Virus record (IMG/VR): IMGVR_UViG_2563366854_000001 | Location: 1 to 22,290 of that record | DNA: 22,290 nt | Source of the DNA: a virus | Lineage: Duplodnaviria; Heunggongvirae; Uroviricota; Caudoviricetes | Reading direction: 5' to 3' (one strand) | In this document: in pieces, positions 4,427 to 9,641 of the stretch | How the letters are laid out: every line of letters starts with the position of its first letter | Numbering within the stretch: position 1 is the first letter of the stretch | Position numbers and translations under genes: made by a program | The notes under the pieces: model-generated | What the model was told of the DNA's origin: nothing | What the model saw: the letters and a program-made list of their open reading frames with translations, nothing else | Database searches by the model: none

Positions 4427-4930
4427 ATGGACAAATTTGATAGAAGTGCACAAAGGCAGTTGTTACAAATACTGTATGATGCTCATCCTTATGAAATTTC
4501 TGATGATGCGTTGCAGTCTGTTCGTGACGCATTTGGAGATGATAATGTCCTAATTTCGAACTTAATTTATCTCGAAGAACATGGCTTGATTAAGAATGCT
4601 CTTGATTATTACTTGGATGGCATAAATATAAATATTCCTGAATTAAGAATTACTAAAGATGGAATTGATTTCATTCGTGATGATGGAGGTCTTAAAGCTA
4701 TTCTTGGGATTATGACAATAAGATTGCATGATGAGACTCTCTGTGAACTTGAACGTATCATCAATAGTTCTACTTCTGCCACGACTGAAGATAAGAAGAA
4801 ATTACTCTCTCAGCTTCGAACGCTTCCTGCCGACGCCATAAAACAGCTGACGATTCGATTACTTGGTCAGGGGCTTGACCATCTGCCGGACGTATTTCAC
4901 GTAATTCAAAAAGCCCTCCATTCTCTGTAA
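4427..4930 (+). CDS. Hypothetical protein, putative N-terminal winged-helix domain (AT-rich accessory gene)
   Basis: 167-aa ORF starting at ATG 4427; AT-rich codon usage unlike flanking genes; motifs LIYLEEHGLIKN and ITKDGIDFI resemble wHTH recognition helix and wing. Confidence 0.6.
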   Translation: MDKFDRSAQRQLLQILYDAHPYEISDDALQSVRDAFGDDNVLISNLIYLEEHGLIKNALDYYLDGININIPELRITKDGIDFIRDDGGLKAILGIMTIRLHDETLCELERIINSSTSATTEDKKKLLSQLRTLPADAIKQLTIRLLGQGLDHLPDVFHVIQKALHSL

Positions 4931-5108
4931 ATTCTGATTCTGGTCGGATTAGACAGAATCGTCCCCATCCGACCTGCTTACTAAGTAGAATCCAGAATTC
5001 GTCTTGTTGGTTGGTGCTGATAAAAAATCCATTAGGATGAACGTAAGCACAGAATATGACCATAGAACCCTCTTTTGTTACGGGGATACTAAGATTGTTA
5101 AAGAGCTA

Positions 5109-5131
5109 AGCGTCCTGTAGGGCGCTTTTTT
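5109..5131 (+). terminator. Rho-independent terminator-like hairpin
   Basis: AGCGTCC-TGTA-GGGCGCT (7-bp stem with one G-U pair) followed by TTTTTT; about 180 nt downstream of the 4427..4930 stop. Confidence 0.5.
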
Positions 5132-5216
5132 GTTGCTAACGAATCATCCGGTCATTCATACGCCACCGGCGGCTACTTCGTGGGCGTCCTGCCTGTCCGT
5201 GATAGCTTACATTATG

Positions 5217-5288
5217 TTGCTACTTAAAGTAGCAAAAATCAACAACAAAAAGTAGATATTTGTTGTTGTCTATGATTTTTCTATAATT
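5217..5288. promoter_or_regulatory. Operator-like palindromes plus a sigma70-like plus-strand promoter
   Basis: Near-perfect palindrome TTGCTACTT-A-AAGTAGCAA (5217-5235), related to the 13-bp motif repeated next to cI/cro; second inverted repeat AACAACAAA-N9-TTTGTTGTT (5241-5267); TTGTTG (5260-5265), 16-nt spacer, TATAAT (5282-5287). Confidence 0.4.
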
Positions 5289-5426
5289 AATTGAAAGTTA
5301 AATGTTTTTGCTGATTTACTATGCTGTAAACTGAAAATATCGCACGAAGTTGGAGTAGGTATTGAGCATAGTGAATTATGAGGAGGGAGTTTTTTATGAG
5401 ATTAATCAGGGAGAAAGAAGAGTAAA

Positions 5427-5446
5427 GCCCGGTTATGCGGCCGGGC
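5427..5446 (-). terminator. Hairpin immediately downstream of the ParA-like gene (candidate terminator)
   Basis: GCCCGG-N8-CCGGGC; on the minus-strand RNA it is followed by UUUACUCUUCUUUCU; begins 8 nt after the ParA-like stop. Confidence 0.4.
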
Positions 5447-5453
5447 ACATGCA

Positions 5454-6530
5454 TTACTTTGTAAGTTCTAGAACTCGTTGAGCCAGCCCTTTAAATTGTT
5501 CGTTAAAGGCGTCTCTGCTTGATTTCATTGTATTTAAGGCATGCCCAAATTGCCCTGAATCGCGAATTTGCTGATCACTGATGGAGAAAACAGGTGTCGC
5601 TAGTTGTTGGCTTATTGCGATTAATGAGTTGAAATCGGAAATATGCGCAAGATCATAGGCTGATAAATCTCCACTGACTGTTGTTTTGTTAATTGCATGT
5701 TGCACTTTATCTCGTGGAATTATGCAGGTAATTTTTTCTAGATTTGGCACTAAGATCGAATCAACAGCATCACGGATAGCTGCCATCCATTTTTCGAAAG
5801 ATTTTACAGGTGCTCCTTTACGCGGCCTGTATCTCTGCTGAATCATACCTAGAAACTGCGGTGCATTTTTAATTGATTGTGAAGAGTTACCATCATTATT
5901 TTCTTTAAATAATGCTAATTCTTTGTGCCAGCGAGGTATATTTTTTGAGAGAGAGCGAATTGCTTGCCAGCAAAAAAAGTCTGGAGCTACAGGTACGATA
6001 AAATAGTCACTTGACATGAGAACTACTTCATTTAAACCTCCAACATTAGGGCTGAGATCATAAAGAATGTAATCAATATTATTCTTCATGGCGATTAGCT
6101 GTAATATTTTTGGCAGGTTCCCTGGTATATTTCTTGTAGCAGGAATACCAGCAGCAATTTTTAGAGAAACACTTATCTGTGAATCTAAGTCCGAAACATC
6201 TAAATGTCCGGGAAGAAGCAGAAGGTTTTCATGCAGTGTAGGGTGTAATTTTCCCGTTTCTTTTTCAAGGTATGCTTCAGGTTGTCCGCCATTAATCAAA
6301 TATTCTACAATAGGTCCAAGAGTTAAGTTATCTCTGCTAGAATAAAAAGAATCTAAACCCTCATCAATCTTTTCATAGCCAAGAACCATTCCTGTTAGAT
6401 TACATTGCGAATCAAGGTCAACCATCAATACTTTCTTGCCTTCATCCGCAAGTGCCCATCCAAGATTGAAGGTTGTTGTGGTTTTACTTACCCCACCTTT
6501 ATGATTAAAAAAACAAATTGATTTTGTCAT
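5454..6530 (-). CDS. ParA/MinD-family P-loop ATPase with long C-terminal extension (orphan; no ParB partner seen)
   Basis: 358-aa ORF; deviant Walker A NHKGGVSKTTT near the N-terminus, VLMVDLDSQCNLT motif, Walker-B-like ILYDLSPNVGG; AGGA upstream of the ATG; AT-rich; same strand as and directly downstream of the cI-like repressor. Confidence 0.8.
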   Translation of the reverse strand: MTKSICFFNHKGGVSKTTTTFNLGWALADEGKKVLMVDLDSQCNLTGMVLGYEKIDEGLDSFYSSRDNLTLGPIVEYLINGGQPEAYLEKETGKLHPTLHENLLLLPGHLDVSDLDSQISVSLKIAAGIPATRNIPGNLPKILQLIAMKNNIDYILYDLSPNVGGLNEVVLMSSDYFIVPVAPDFFCWQAIRSLSKNIPRWHKELALFKENNDGNSSQSIKNAPQFLGMIQQRYRPRKGAPVKSFEKWMAAIRDAVDSILVPNLEKITCIIPRDKVQHAINKTTVSGDLSAYDLAHISDFNSLIAISQQLATPVFSISDQQIRDSGQFGHALNTMKSSRDAFNEQFKGLAQRVLELTK

Positions 6531-6700
6531 ATTTCTCTATCCTTTCGACCCCCAGCATATTGTAATTTACGCTGGGTGATTATTTTATATTGTTAATGAT
6601 AATGTTTAATAAAAATAAGAGAGTAAAACAACTATTAGTAATAGCACTTGCTTGATAAATATTATTTTTTCACCTTTAGTTCTATAGTCTAAACGAAGAA

Positions 6701-7462
6701 CTAAAGCCGGTTGTATTTAATTGATTCGTGTATCAATGCTTTGCCCATAACATAAAGTTGATCTTGGGACTTCTCATCAATGTACCATTTCTCATAGGCT
6801 GGATTATCCGAAAGAACGGCGAGTTTGTTGCCTTGCATTTGTAGACGTTTAACGTGGAACGTCTTACCATAAACGAAAGAGTAAACACCATCAGTTTGGA
6901 AGTTGCGAACAGAAATGTCGACAAACAGTCGATCTCCGGAAACTAGAGTAGGGGACATGCTGTCGCCATTTACAGTCATAACTTTAATATCATCTTGAGA
7001 ACGATTACCGAAAAGAGAACGGGCATGCTCTGTTGTGAACTCAATGGCGTAGAGCACATCAACATAGTCTGAAAGCATATAGGTTCCAGGTCCTGCGCTA
7101 ACGCTAAGATCCAAAACTTCTATCCTGTATACATCGGGTTTTGTTGGATTGGGGATGCTTGCCATTTCCTTACATCCTTCTCTCTCGCCAACACCATATT
7201 CTAAATATGAAGCTGATACCCCCAGAGCCAATGCAAGTTTATTCATGACAGAGGCACGAGGCTTCGCAGCGCCGATTGTGTATCGCCGCGCCATTTCATA
7301 TGTAACGCCCACAAGACTTTTGAGTTGGGTGACAGAAATTCCCTTGTTTGTCATTAGCTCGTTTAGTCTCTTGGCGAAATCTGGATACTTCTGTTCTTCT
7401 ACCATAGGTAGAAGGTTACTCGCATCACATACGCTAGTCATTTCTATTTTAAGTAGTTGCAT
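6701..7462 (-). CDS. cI-like prophage repressor (XRE-type HTH plus S24 LexA-like peptidase domain)
   Basis: HTH LMTNKGISVTQLKSLVGVTYEMARRY; Ala-Gly cleavage-site-like SAGPG; S24 motifs VNGDSMSPTL and KRL. Start is ambiguous (7462, 7441 or 7405) with no strong SD, so it may be leaderless. Confidence 0.85.
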   Translation of the reverse strand: MQLLKIEMTSVCDASNLLPMVEEQKYPDFAKRLNELMTNKGISVTQLKSLVGVTYEMARRYTIGAAKPRASVMNKLALALGVSASYLEYGVGEREGCKEMASIPNPTKPDVYRIEVLDLSVSAGPGTYMLSDYVDVLYAIEFTTEHARSLFGNRSQDDIKVMTVNGDSMSPTLVSGDRLFVDISVRNFQTDGVYSFVYGKTFHVKRLQMQGNKLAVLSDNPAYEKWYIDEKSQDQLYVMGKALIHESIKYNRL

Positions 7463-7503
7463 TCTGCTATTTTAAGTAGCATCATCCCTCTGAATTTCAG
7501 AGG
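7444..7503. promoter_or_regulatory. Immunity-region operators between cI and cro
   Basis: Two identical 13-bp copies CTATTTTAAGTAG (7444-7456 and 7467-7479, 23 bp centre to centre) plus palindrome CCTCTGAA-T-TTCAGAGG (7487-7503) overlapping the cro SD. Confidence 0.55.
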
Positions 7504-7511
7504 AGAAAGGT

Positions 7512-7775
7512 ATGTCATCTCAAAACTACACAGAGAAAGCAGTAAAAGCTGCGGGAAAATCTTTATCTGAAGTAGCCCGTCACTTTGGTTTTAAGTCCAC
7601 TCAATCCGTCGCTAATTGGGTAATTAACAATCAAGTCCCGTCAGAACGGGTTTTACAACTTTGTGAGTTGGGAAACTGGTCCGTGACCCCTCATGAACTG
7701 CGTCCTGATATTTACCCCAATCCAAATGATGGATTACCTGAGTGCTATTCAAAAGTTAGCGGTTCAGCTGCGTAA
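7512..7775 (+). CDS. Cro/YdaS-like HTH regulator
   Basis: 87-aa ORF with GGAGAAAGG upstream; divergent from cI across the operators; C-terminal ELRPDIY resembles the YdaS family (memory-based). Confidence 0.7.
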   Translation: MSSQNYTEKAVKAAGKSLSEVARHFGFKSTQSVANWVINNQVPSERVLQLCELGNWSVTPHELRPDIYPNPNDGLPECYSKVSGSAA

Positions 7776-7803: not shown

Positions 7804-8355
7804 GTGGGTAAGCATCACTGGAAAATAGAAAAACAGCCTGAGTGGTACGTGAAAGCTGTCAGAAAAACTATCGCAGCGTTGCCGGGGGGTTACGCTGAAG
7901 CTGCTGACTGGCTGGACGTAACAGAGAACGCATTATTTAACCGCCTTCGTGCCGATGGCGATCAGATTTTCCCGCTGGGATGGGCAATGGTTTTACAGCG
8001 TGCTGGTGGCACTCACTTCATTGCTGATGCTGTGGCGCAGTCTGCAAATGGCGTATTTGTGTCTCTTCCTGACGTCGAGGATGTGGACAACGCCGATATT
8101 AACCAGCGTCTGCTGGAAGTCATTGAACAGATCGGCAGTTATTCAAAACAGATTCGTTCAGCAATCGAAGACGGTGTAGTGGAACCGCATGAGAAGACAG
8201 CAATTAACGACGAGCTGTATCTCTCAATTTCGAAGCTGCAGGAGCATGCAGCACTGGTCTACAAAATCTTTTGCATTTCAGAAAGTAATGACGCCCGCGA
8301 GTGTGCAGCTCCGGGCGCCGTGGCGTGTCGTGACTGTGGAGAAACTAACGCATGA
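7804..8355 (+). CDS. YdaT-like protein (putative CII-type regulator)
   Basis: Start placed at GTG 7804-7806, 7 nt after GAGGAG and just after the cro stop; the ATG-initiated 7693 ORF would overlap cro by 80 nt. Assignment is by position and size. Confidence 0.5.
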
Positions 8356-8707
8356 ACAGTTTAACAACACACTACCGTCGCTCGCAACTGATTGCGCTTC
8401 CTGTACCGGGTGGAAAAGCGAAGGTGGAATATTGCTATGCAGTGAATGTACCAGGTGACAGGGAAATTGTAACCCACAGCTTTGCTGAGTGGGCTGTGGG
8501 TGATTTCAACCGGCAGAAGGAGACAGTCCTTTGCGACAAGTTAACCGCTGGTTCAAAGATCACTACGGAGTGCCCGTCAGAGTCATTCGTTGGGAACCGG
8601 AAACACAACGTGTTATCTACCTCCGCGAAGGCTATGAGCATGAGTGCTTCAGCCCGCTCGAACAGTTTCGTCGTAAATTCAGGGAAATAGAGGTCGGTCA
8701 TGAGCAC
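8352..8707 (+). pseudogene. Small gene with apparent frame discontinuity (frameshifted or mis-sequenced)
   Basis: N-terminal part is in the frame starting at ATG 8352 (ATGA-coupled to the upstream stop); the protein-like C-terminal part ([49 protein letters not shown]) is in another frame from about 8504 and ends at 8707, overlapping the O-like start. The frame-0 tail after about 8530 is Ser-rich junk. Confidence 0.45.
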
Positions 8708-9641
8708 TAAATTAACCGGCTATGTATGGGATGGTTGCGCTGCATCAGGCATGAAATTATCCAGCGTGGCAATTATGGCCCGCCTGGCTGATTTCAGTAA
8801 TGACGAAGGTGTGTGCTGGCCATCAATTGAAACCATTGCCCGCCAGATTGGCGCGGGGATGAGTACCGTCAGAACGGCTATCGCACGGCTGGAAGCAGAA
8901 GGCTGGTTAACGCGTAGGGCGCGTCGCCAGGGTAACCGCAATGCGTCGAATGTTTATCAGCTTAACGTTGCGAAGCTTCAGGCAGCGGCATTTTCTCAAC
9001 TGTCAGATTCTGACCCGTCAAAATCTGACGCATCAAAATCTGACCCGTCAAAATTTGATGCGTCGAAATCTGGCAAAAAAGCGGGTTTTCACCCGTCAGA
9101 ATCTGGTGGGGATCCGTCAGTAAAATCAAAACATGATCCGTCAGATAAAAAAACTTCTCGTCCGGACGCTTCGCAACCGGACACGCAGACGGCTGAACAG
9201 GATTTTTTAACTCGCCATCCTGATGCGGTTGTATTCAGCCCTAAAAAGCGCCAGTGGGGGACGCAGGATGATTTGACCTGCGCACAGTGGCTCTGGAAAA
9301 AAATCATCGCCCTGTACGAGCATGCCGCCGAATGTGACGGCGAGGTGGTTCGTCCCAAAGAACCGAACTGGATAGCCTGGGCAAACGAAATTCGCCTGAT
9401 GTGTGTGCAGGATGGTCGTACTCATAAACAAATCTGCGAGATGTACAGCCGCGTCAGTCGCGATCCGTTCTGGTGCCGTAACGTGCTCAGCCCGTCGAAG
9501 CTGCGGGAAAAATGGGATGAGCTTTCCCTGCGCTTATCGCCGTCCGTCAGCACGTACACCGAAAAACGCGAAGACCCGTACTTCAAAGCCAGTTACGACA
9601 ACGTGGACTACAGCCAGATCCCGGCAGGATTCAGGGGGTGA
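8700..9641 (+). CDS. Replication initiator, lambda O-like
   Basis: 313 aa; N-terminal HTH-like region; internal low-complexity linker encoded by tandem DNA repeats (iterons), as in lambda O; GAGG 6 nt upstream of ATG. Confidence 0.75.
   Translation: MSTKLTGYVWDGCAASGMKLSSVAIMARLADFSNDEGVCWPSIETIARQIGAGMSTVRTAIARLEAEGWLTRRARRQGNRNASNVYQLNVAKLQAAAFSQLSDSDPSKSDASKSDPSKFDASKSGKKAGFHPSESGGDPSVKSKHDPSDKKTSRPDASQPDTQTAEQDFLTRHPDAVVFSPKKRQWGTQDDLTCAQWLWKKIIALYEHAAECDGEVVRPKEPNWIAWANEIRLMCVQDGRTHKQICEMYSRVSRDPFWCRNVLSPSKLREKWDELSLRLSPSVSTYTEKREDPYFKASYDNVDYSQIPAGFRG
9000..9150. repeat. Iteron array: candidate phage origin of replication inside the O-like gene
   Basis: At least five tandem units of about 15 bp (consensus near CCGTCAAAATCTGAC) at 9001-9074, further degenerate copies to about 9145, followed by an A-rich tract (GATAAAAAAA). 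Confidence 0.6.

Follow-up and report, generated by a model that had tools for sequence, protein, structure and literature searches.

In the present work, we analyze the immunity region of an Escherichia coli lambdoid prophage at argU, contained in a viral DNA stretch of 22,290 nucleotides (IMG/VR record IMGVR_UViG_2563366854_000001, called the window below), with focus on the repeats located between its divergent cI and cro genes. We consider it likely that these repeats serve as operators in an immunity switch of the lambda type, in which the cI-like repressor would recognize CTAC-N5-GTAG, a 13-bp motif whose centre is rich in A/T. A palindrome at the cro ribosome-binding site, on the other hand, most likely forms an RNA hairpin in which CCUCU pairs with the Shine-Dalgarno sequence (SD), and is not a repressor site.

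Five sites are found, three in the right operator region (OR) and two in the left one (OL). Their relation to the predicted rightward and leftward early promoters (PR and PL) and to the predicted repressor maintenance promoter (PRM) is discussed below.

O1 (OR1), 7467-7479: CTATTTTAAGTAG, extended to the 17-mer TGCTATTTTAAGTAGCA at 7465-7481, within the predicted PR spacer
O2 (OR2), 7444-7456: CTATTTTAAGTAG, touching the PR −35 hexamer and 2 bp from the predicted PRM −35, with its centre at about −45 of the PRM start
O3 (OR3), 7399-7411: CTACCATAGGTAG, core of the palindrome CTTCTACC-ATA-GGTAGAAG (7396-7414)
OL1, 5220-5232: CTACTTAAAGTAG, core of the perfect 17-bp palindrome TGCTACTTAAAGTAGCA at 5218-5234
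OL2, 5243-5255: CAACAAAAAGTAG, 23 bp from OL1

The initial annotation of this DNA had described two identical 13-mers and a related distal site near 5217-5235. All of these are real: the 13-mer is present at 7444-7456 and 7467-7479, 23 bp apart from start to start, and the distal site is the palindrome of OL1. The third OR site, O3, and OL2 had been missed. The core operator had been given as CTAnTTnAAnTAG, while the core that is conserved across relatives is CTAC-N5-GTAG, with the family consensus CTAC-(T/C)(T/A)(T/A)(A)(A/G)-GTAG. The identity of the two 13-mers holds only in this lineage and arises because O1 of the window has a T instead of a C at position 4; most other sampled lineages have CTAC at O1. 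An independent repeat search detected 5214-5259 and 7440-7485 as a 46-nt inverted repeat with 78% complementarity, and by its sequence the predicted OL/PL module is an inverted copy of the predicted OR/PR promoter-operator module.

How much of this could be expected by chance? The number of CTA-N7-TAG matches, the motif for which a genome-wide search had been suggested, is by itself not significant (5 in the window against 2.3 expected, with 7 of 100 shuffles reaching 5), whereas the arrangement of the sites is. With a cut-off that requires a match at 7 or more of the 8 outer positions of CTAC-N5-GTAG, five sites pass in the 22-kb window (5220, 5243, 7399, 7444 and 7467), all of them in the two clusters, and two pairs lie at exactly 23 bp. 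Pairs spaced 22-24 bp were not present in any of 300 dinucleotide shuffles, and exact 13-mers repeated within 50 bp occur on average 0.02 times per shuffle. The paired arrangement significantly exceeds chance. The motif count, the location of a ParA-family ATPase gene between the two clusters and one unrelated A/T-rich phage contig that matches the pair pattern by chance would be compatible with the repeats matching by chance in intergenic DNA rich in A/T, or with their acting as a centromere for the ParA-family cargo protein. With no such pair in the shuffles and the sites conserved across genera, we regard this as extremely improbable. The centromere option was rejected because the sites persist with other cargo or with none, OL being located 120-165 bp beyond the cI stop in the absence of cargo and at a distance of 1-2.7 kb otherwise.

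The genes of the region are the following:

cI-like repressor, 6701-7405, minus strand: 234 aa, HTH_3 (PF01381) and Peptidase_S24 (PF00717) domains, PGAP start at 7405
cro, 7512-7775, plus strand: YdaS-family helix-turn-helix protein (PF15943), 87 aa
CII-like activator gene, 7804-8355, after cro: PF06892 / phrog_101
ParA-family cargo gene, 5454-6530, minus strand: immediately follows cI, where lambda has rexAB

The S24 domain of the repressor is matched with E = 1.3e-16 and the PF15943 domain of Cro with E = 2.2e-11, above the cut-off, and phrog_4 and phrog_35 match the divergent repressor/cro pair. The recognition helix of the repressor is VTYEMARRYTIGAAKPR. In its translation, the motifs VSAGPG (Ala-Gly), GDSMSP and VKRL were spotted by eye; these resemble the autocleavage motifs of LexA-type proteins, with an Ala-Gly site and catalytic Ser and Lys residues, and RecA-dependent cleavage is thereby predicted. 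A sequence search of the PDB with cI gave no match to a solved structure, and with Cro a resemblance only to the Cro protein of entry 3bd1.

Relatives were collected in three ways: the switch region was found in 206 of 5426 complete E. coli genomes (~4%), 58 IMG/VR loci were obtained via the repressor protein, and 65 via the operator-pair pattern, searched in 2.9 million viral contigs. In 64 of these 65, the pattern lies beside a homologue of the present repressor/cro pair or in a split contig of such a prophage. The other one (L093, 780-815) is a false positive, an unrelated A/T-rich viral contig with a 23-bp tandem repeat GCAACTATAAAAAGTAGCGTTGC and no repressor/cro homologue nearby.

The comparison set consists of about 24 lineages, with repressor N-domain identities ranging from 100% to 50%. 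Relative to the cI ATG, O3, O2 and O1 are located at −6, +39 and +62 (61 in some lineages), and the two OL sites stay 23 bp apart. O2 and O3 are separated by 45 bp in every enteric lineage, and the segments that link the conserved blocks are free to vary in sequence and fixed in length. Both half-sites of O1 are conserved in all lineages (family consensus CTACTTTAAGTAG). For O2, the left half and the GTCATTT block are invariant, and the right half drifts (AAGTAG, CAGTAG, AAGTTG, TGGTTG); the OL2 position carries a complete CTACAAAAAGTAG in most relatives. In some lineages, O2 or O3 fails the 7-of-8 cut-off. The boundary position of OL is the same with 0 and with 2.5 kb of cargo, and this cargo differs among close relatives, being either ParA-family or unrelated hypothetical genes. 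The bracketing of an accessory island by OL and OR, as described in the initial annotation, is thus real, with OL being kept across relatives that have variable or no cargo.

Conservation of the repeats together with orthologous repressors had been set in advance as a test of the operator assignment, and it is found in these lineages and also in isolated phages of four other genera. The latter are Providencia PSTCR8lys, Acinetobacter AbTJ, Moraxella Mcat4 and Aggregatibacter Aaphi23, with 48-54% N-domain identity. They have the triplet of sites in the same order, with O1-O2 distances of 20-24 bp and O2-O3 distances of 44-55 bp, and they keep the helix core V[ST]YEM.RRYTLG. In every lineage with the sites, the cI helix V[ST]YEM[AV]RRYT[IL]G[AT]AKPR is invariant, while repressors with the same C-terminal domain and a different N-domain (LTPKAVSKWFNGEAIPRR) are accompanied by different repeats. 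A scan of GTDB genomes with cI gave only two loci, both with a swapped N-domain, which were used as negative controls and provided no orthologues. The sequences and positions of the sites, their conservation and their co-variation with the recognition helix of the repressor are direct observations.

The sites could also be recognized by Cro, and here the distant phages are informative. The presumptive Cro recognition helix, TQSVANW in the window, is replaced by PWAVSKW-like sequences in Aaphi23, Mcat4, AbTJ and locus L116, while a window-like helix is kept in Providencia. Since the Cro helix changes in distant phages in which the sites persist, the operator motif tracks cI and not Cro. A search with six 13-mers of the sites (strand variants of O1/OL1, O2 and O3) found no relevant paper in the searchable literature.

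An additional operator-like sequence, TTATCTGAAGTAG, is located inside cro at 7563-7575, where it covers the codons for L-S-E-V of the helix-turn-helix. A full CTA-N7-TAG is present at the same position in some relatives, namely CTATCTGAGGTAG in L038 and CTATCAGAAGTAG in L051, L054 and L055. This may represent a weak fourth site downstream of PR, or simply a by-product of the coding sequence.

We now consider how the sites would operate. Three promoters can be predicted around them:

predicted PR, 7457-7485, plus strand: −35 TTGCAT (7457-7462), 17-bp spacer with O1, −10 CATCAT (7480-7485), start at G7492
predicted PL, 5214-5242, minus strand: −35 TTGATT (5242-5237), 17-bp spacer with OL1, −10 CAACAT (5219-5214), start at about 5207
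predicted PRM, 7405-7441, minus strand: −35 ATGACT (7441-7436), 17-bp variable spacer, −10 TAACCT (7418-7413), start at A7405

In every enteric lineage, both OR and OL have the same module order, consisting of the upstream site, TTGnnn, 4 nt, the downstream site and nAnnAT. The predicted spacers of PR and PL are filled by O1 and OL1, and O2 and OL2 abut the −35 hexamers. The start of PR was placed at G7492, where a run of pyrimidines gives way to the first purine, 7 nt downstream of the −10. For PRM, the −10 block reads TAATCT in most relatives and is followed by 7 nt and then the ATG at 7405. No SD precedes this ATG in the window, and the predicted start coincides with the A of the AUG (7405-7403), on which the O3 palindrome is centred. 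Taking the ATGAC block as the PRM −35, we infer a leaderless cI message in the enteric lineages. A PRM-like layout is also present, in a more canonical form, in the distant phages, as ATGACA-17-TAAACT-7-ATG in Providencia, as ATGACG-17-TAAAAT followed by O3, SD and ATG in Moraxella, and as TTGAAT-17-TATCTT followed by O3, SD and ATG in Aaphi23.

The binding, cooperativity and activation in the following scheme are, like the promoter starts, deduced from sequence. Repressor bound at O1/O2 and OL1/OL2 would cover the spacers and flanks of PR and PL, and this occupancy would shut off rightward (cro-cII-replication) and leftward early transcription. Cooperating lambda dimers have a centre-to-centre spacing of 23 bp, as do O1/O2 and OL1/OL2 here. 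O2 lies just upstream of the −35 of the weak leftward PRM, and repressor bound to it would be well placed to stimulate its own synthesis, whereas O3, on the PRM start, could lower PRM activity when repressor is abundant or Cro is bound. The cargo gene would ride on the cI transcript, ending at the terminator before OL.

Several observations weigh against this scheme. The promoter calls are based on consensus and are weak, with 7 of 12 positions matched for both PR and PRM, and the promoter scan tool reported only a different candidate on the minus strand. OL has only two detected sites, which means that the OL3-OR3 loop model of lambda is not directly transferable. In some lineages, O3 shows a symmetric change of CTAC to CCAC and GTAG to GTGG with O1 unchanged, which would fit a hairpin as well as an operator. 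Finally, cI could be extended by 12 codons from an in-frame ATG at 7441, and this extension is free of stops in 11 independent enteric lineages, which fits a longer cI together with a promoter inside O1/O2 and plain autorepression. Regarding O3, the possibility that it is solely an RNA hairpin or a coding artefact was rejected, since it is non-coding and located upstream of the SD in Aaphi23 and Mcat4.

The last of these points leads to a different picture, in which the maintenance promoter lies inside the repeats (−35 TTAAAA at 7475-7470, 18-bp spacer, −10 TAAAAT at 7451-7446) and cI is translated from the ATG at 7441 into a protein of 246 aa. The ATGAC block would then be the start codon of this protein instead of the PRM −35, and repressor bound at O1/O2 would simply repress its own gene. 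This TTAAAA-18-TAAAAT sequence, with 9 of 12 positions, is the only promoter-like match that the scan tool gave, AAAATAGAAATGAC is invariant, and the GenBank annotation of the Providencia phage PSTCR8lys uses the longer start. Also, in the variable part of 7405-7441, the other two frames contain 4 and 11 stops in the same 11 lineages, and the stop-free frame of 12 codons is hard to explain if this segment is only a promoter spacer. However, the ATGAC frame stops after six codons in Mcat4, and Aaphi23 has TTGAAT at this position and lacks the ATG, while retaining the 17-bp spacer, the −10 and O3. The extension peptide has no conserved residues except those imposed by O3 and the −10, and its length never varies by a single codon, which together fit promoter geometry. 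Moreover, no more than 4 nt separate the ATG at 7441 from the −10 of this internal promoter, and the PGAP start is 7405 in all genomes seen. We therefore judge the 246-aa start with its internal promoter to be unlikely, and retain the start at 7405 with PRM upstream of it.

The switch would work like OR/OL of lambda, and it shows every defining feature of this kind of switch that could be checked from sequence. As in lambda, the cI (helix-turn-helix plus S24) and cro genes are divergent, there are three related pseudo-palindromic OR sites and a second set at OL some 2.2-2.4 kb away, and the interval from cI to OL holds a non-essential cargo gene at the place of rexAB, with a terminator at its end. 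Neighbouring sites are 23 bp apart, one site is beside the predicted PRM −35 and one on PRM itself; O2 has the position of OR2, centred near −45 of the predicted PRM; the cI message may be leaderless; and a CII-type activator gene follows cro. There are, however, also a number of differences. The CTAC-N5-GTAG operator has a 13-bp core and is unrelated in sequence to the lambda 17-mers, the O2-O3 distance is 45 bp instead of 23, O3 is on the PRM start and the start codon instead of on the −10/−35, and only two OL sites are detected as compared to three. Here, Cro belongs to the YdaS family and CII to that of 186/CP76, and there is the anti-SD inverted repeat at cro. The switch is a variation on lambda and not a new principle, and the repeat at cro is possibly its only new element.

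We have also compared the region with two other switches. In the related cryptic prophage CP-933P (PaaR2 / YdaS / YdaT), the repressor message is leaderless according to 5′ RACE, as is the lambda cI message, and there are operator sets at both OR and OL, with accessory cargo that shares its transcript with the repressor (PMC8630535). The YdaS-family Cro is shared with the present prophage. However, the CP-933P operators are 18-bp repeats with the consensus half GTTTAGTAA (PMC8630535) instead of CTAC-N5-GTAG, and its CII analogue YdaT is a POU-like protein that binds TTGATT-N6-AATCAA (PMC8630535, PMC9986795), in contrast to the PF06892 / phrog_101 protein found here. The cargo, a toxin-antitoxin system in CP-933P, is a ParA-family ATPase here. 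On the basis of the CII analogue and the operators, the CP-933P/Rac switch type was rejected.

The second case is the element e14 (ymfK/cohE, ymfT/croE, ymfL) of E. coli K-12. The gene order, the YmfL-type CII-like gene and the leader block downstream of PL are the same as here, while the repressors have 33% identity, in the C-terminal domain only, and the e14 repeats are of the GTACC/GGTAC type. As the DNA-binding domain of the repressor and the operators differ, e14 was rejected as a member of the same immunity type. The leader block is the following:

conserved PL leader block, 5135-5200, minus strand: shared with prophages of a different immunity type, including e14 (L128, 3105-3175)

That this block is common to another immunity type fits an exchangeable immunity cassette. 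Just after it, about 100 nt downstream of the predicted PL, is AGCTCTTTAACAA (5095-5107, minus strand), which matches the rrn/lambdoid boxA consensus at 12 of 13 positions, and this region may be a nutL-like antitermination site. Relatives with a different type of leader (e.g. L045) carry CGCTCTTTAACAA.

We now come to the palindrome at cro, which the initial annotation had counted as part of the immunity switch:

inverted repeat CCTCTGA/TCAGAGG, 7487-7503, plus strand: CCTCTGAA-T-TTCAGAGG, with the 3′ arm over the cro SD GAGGAG (7500-7505)

Its position and its overlap with the SD were correctly described, the cro ATG being at 7512, 7 nt after the SD, but it is probably an RNA hairpin and not a protein site. 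In most enteric lineages, a pyrimidine-rich 5′ arm pairs with the SD in spite of differing sequences and a variable loop length. The stem variants are CCTCTGA/TCAGAGG, CCTCTA/TAGAGG, CCTGTGA/TCACAGG, CTCTTGG/CCAGGAG and CCCTTTT/AGGAGGG, the last with G·U pairs. RNAalifold found no consensus structure for all 23 leader sequences, because the most distant lineages lack the hairpin, and a subset of 14 sequences was therefore analyzed instead. In this alignment, 86.7% of the cells are paired, three pairs have changed on both sides, and the covariation score is higher than those of all 500 shuffles and all slid controls. The G·U pairs favour the plus strand by 6 to 3, and the plus-strand fold is the more stable one in 21 of 30 sequences. 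The variable spacing of the arms and the G·U pairing point to RNA rather than to a protein site. In Providencia and in those enteric lineages that are most distant, the hairpin is weak or lacking, which makes it an accessory feature and not part of the core switch. Within the window, Rfam matched no family.

We have considered the option that the palindrome instead is bound as DNA by a dimeric protein (Cro, a CII-like protein or a host factor), that is, a fourth operator at the PR start. It is a perfect palindrome with 8-bp arms centred near the predicted PR start, it folds equally well on either strand in the window, and its CCTCT/AGAGG arms are widely conserved. However, the arms are set at varying distances, with a total length of 17, 18, 19 bp or more, and at the inner positions there is co-variation instead of conservation. 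The L087 group has a DNA sequence of poor symmetry whose RNA pairs through G·U (−16 vs −7 kcal/mol). The right arm is already accounted for as the SD, the sequence is unlike CTAC-N5-GTAG, and there is no second copy near OL. An operator at this location thus appears improbable, and we continue with the RNA hairpin.

The function of such a hairpin depends on where PR transcription starts. The 5′ arm (7487-7493) falls between the PR −10 and the predicted start at G7492, with the same geometry in relatives. If this start is right, transcripts from PR lack the 5′ arm and leave the SD free, and only transcripts derived from further upstream can fold. If the start is instead located further upstream, the hairpin would attenuate or stabilize the cro message. 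In that case, with a start upstream of 7487, the palindrome would be part of the normal PR message and act as a translational attenuator or a 5′ stabilizing hairpin for cro. The SD-pairing stem that is kept with compensatory changes in most enteric lineages, the strand preference of the G·U pairs and of the fold stability, and the extension of the pairing over the CATTAT hexamer in the L087 group would all agree with this. On the other hand, the only conserved σ70-like geometry has its −10 at 7480-7485, so that the 5′ arm would not be transcribed, no alternative −10 with a usable −35 was found upstream, and the stability of the single sequence is unremarkable (RNA folding of the cro hairpin gives z = −1.1, which is not significant). 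We regard a transcribed hairpin in the normal message as possible but doubtful.

A related arrangement has been reported for the insertion sequences IS10 and IS50, in which read-through transcripts are said to be inhibited by folding back (attributed to Davis, Simons and Kleckner, 1985, and Schulz and Reznikoff, 1991). There, as here, an inverted repeat pairs with the ribosome-binding site. Its 5′ arm is upstream of the element's own start, as it would be here with the predicted start, although the present gene is cro and not a transposase. To our knowledge, fold-back inhibition has not been described for any phage cro. We tentatively put forward, as a speculative and rather unlikely idea, that the repeat straddling the PR start is an IS10-like insulator against stray rightward transcripts, alongside an operator/helix pair, undescribed in the searchable literature, that extends from Escherichia to Moraxella and Aggregatibacter. 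If this is true, cro messages initiated at PR would be freely translated, while transcripts arriving from the side of cI and the cargo would fold and hide the cro SD, and the fold-back would in this way protect lysogeny from stray transcription.

The results define the putative operator sequence, the site map and the probable promoters for an immunity group that is present in ~4% of complete E. coli genomes and has relatives in Providencia, Acinetobacter, Moraxella and Aggregatibacter phages. Pairs of CTAC-N5-GTAG at 23 bp are almost diagnostic of this immunity type and can help to predict the superinfection immunity of prophages. The interval from OL to cI is a site of cargo insertion and of expression in lysogens, and the repressor/operator pair is compact and orthogonal, which could be useful for synthetic circuits.

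Concerning the genomic setting, the region around the switch has 100% identity to E. coli strain Z247, in which the prophage adjoins tRNA-Arg and folD. No isolated phage gave a close nucleotide-level match to the region, and distant blastn matches covered only the C-terminal part of cI or short stretches of the repressor N-terminus and cro, with no sequenced phage having the whole immunity region. The ParA-family gene is co-oriented with cI and is followed by a terminator-like hairpin at 5427-5446 (minus strand). A PADLOC match of its product (PDC-M28B) was dismissed as not meaningful, since only the P-loop is covered. Between the cI stop and the start of this gene, at 6632-6644, there is a perfect palindrome CTATTAGTAATAG, which conforms to CTA-N7-TAG and not to CTAC-N5-GTAG. 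The O157 relative L003, which has a different ParA-family cargo, lacks this palindrome. In this same relative (E. coli O157:H7 strain 146N4), an IS3-family element at 4981-6194 interrupts cro and leaves the operators and cI intact, and this copy of the prophage can probably no longer leave the repressed state.

To the left of OL, the segment 4427-5127 differs from strain Z247 by many mismatches. It contains an open reading frame of 167 aa on the plus strand (phrog_3983) with its own terminator at 5108-5127, convergent with PL, and, antisense to it, one of 97 aa on the minus strand (4770-5063) with a strong SD. This segment looks like a second variable cargo slot. Further to the right, at 9009-9072, a tandem array of a 15-bp unit (TCTGACCCGTCAAAA, 4.3 copies) is located in a replication-initiator-like gene (8700-9641), where it encodes DPSKSDASKS repeats and resembles the iterons of a lambda-type origin inside the O gene.

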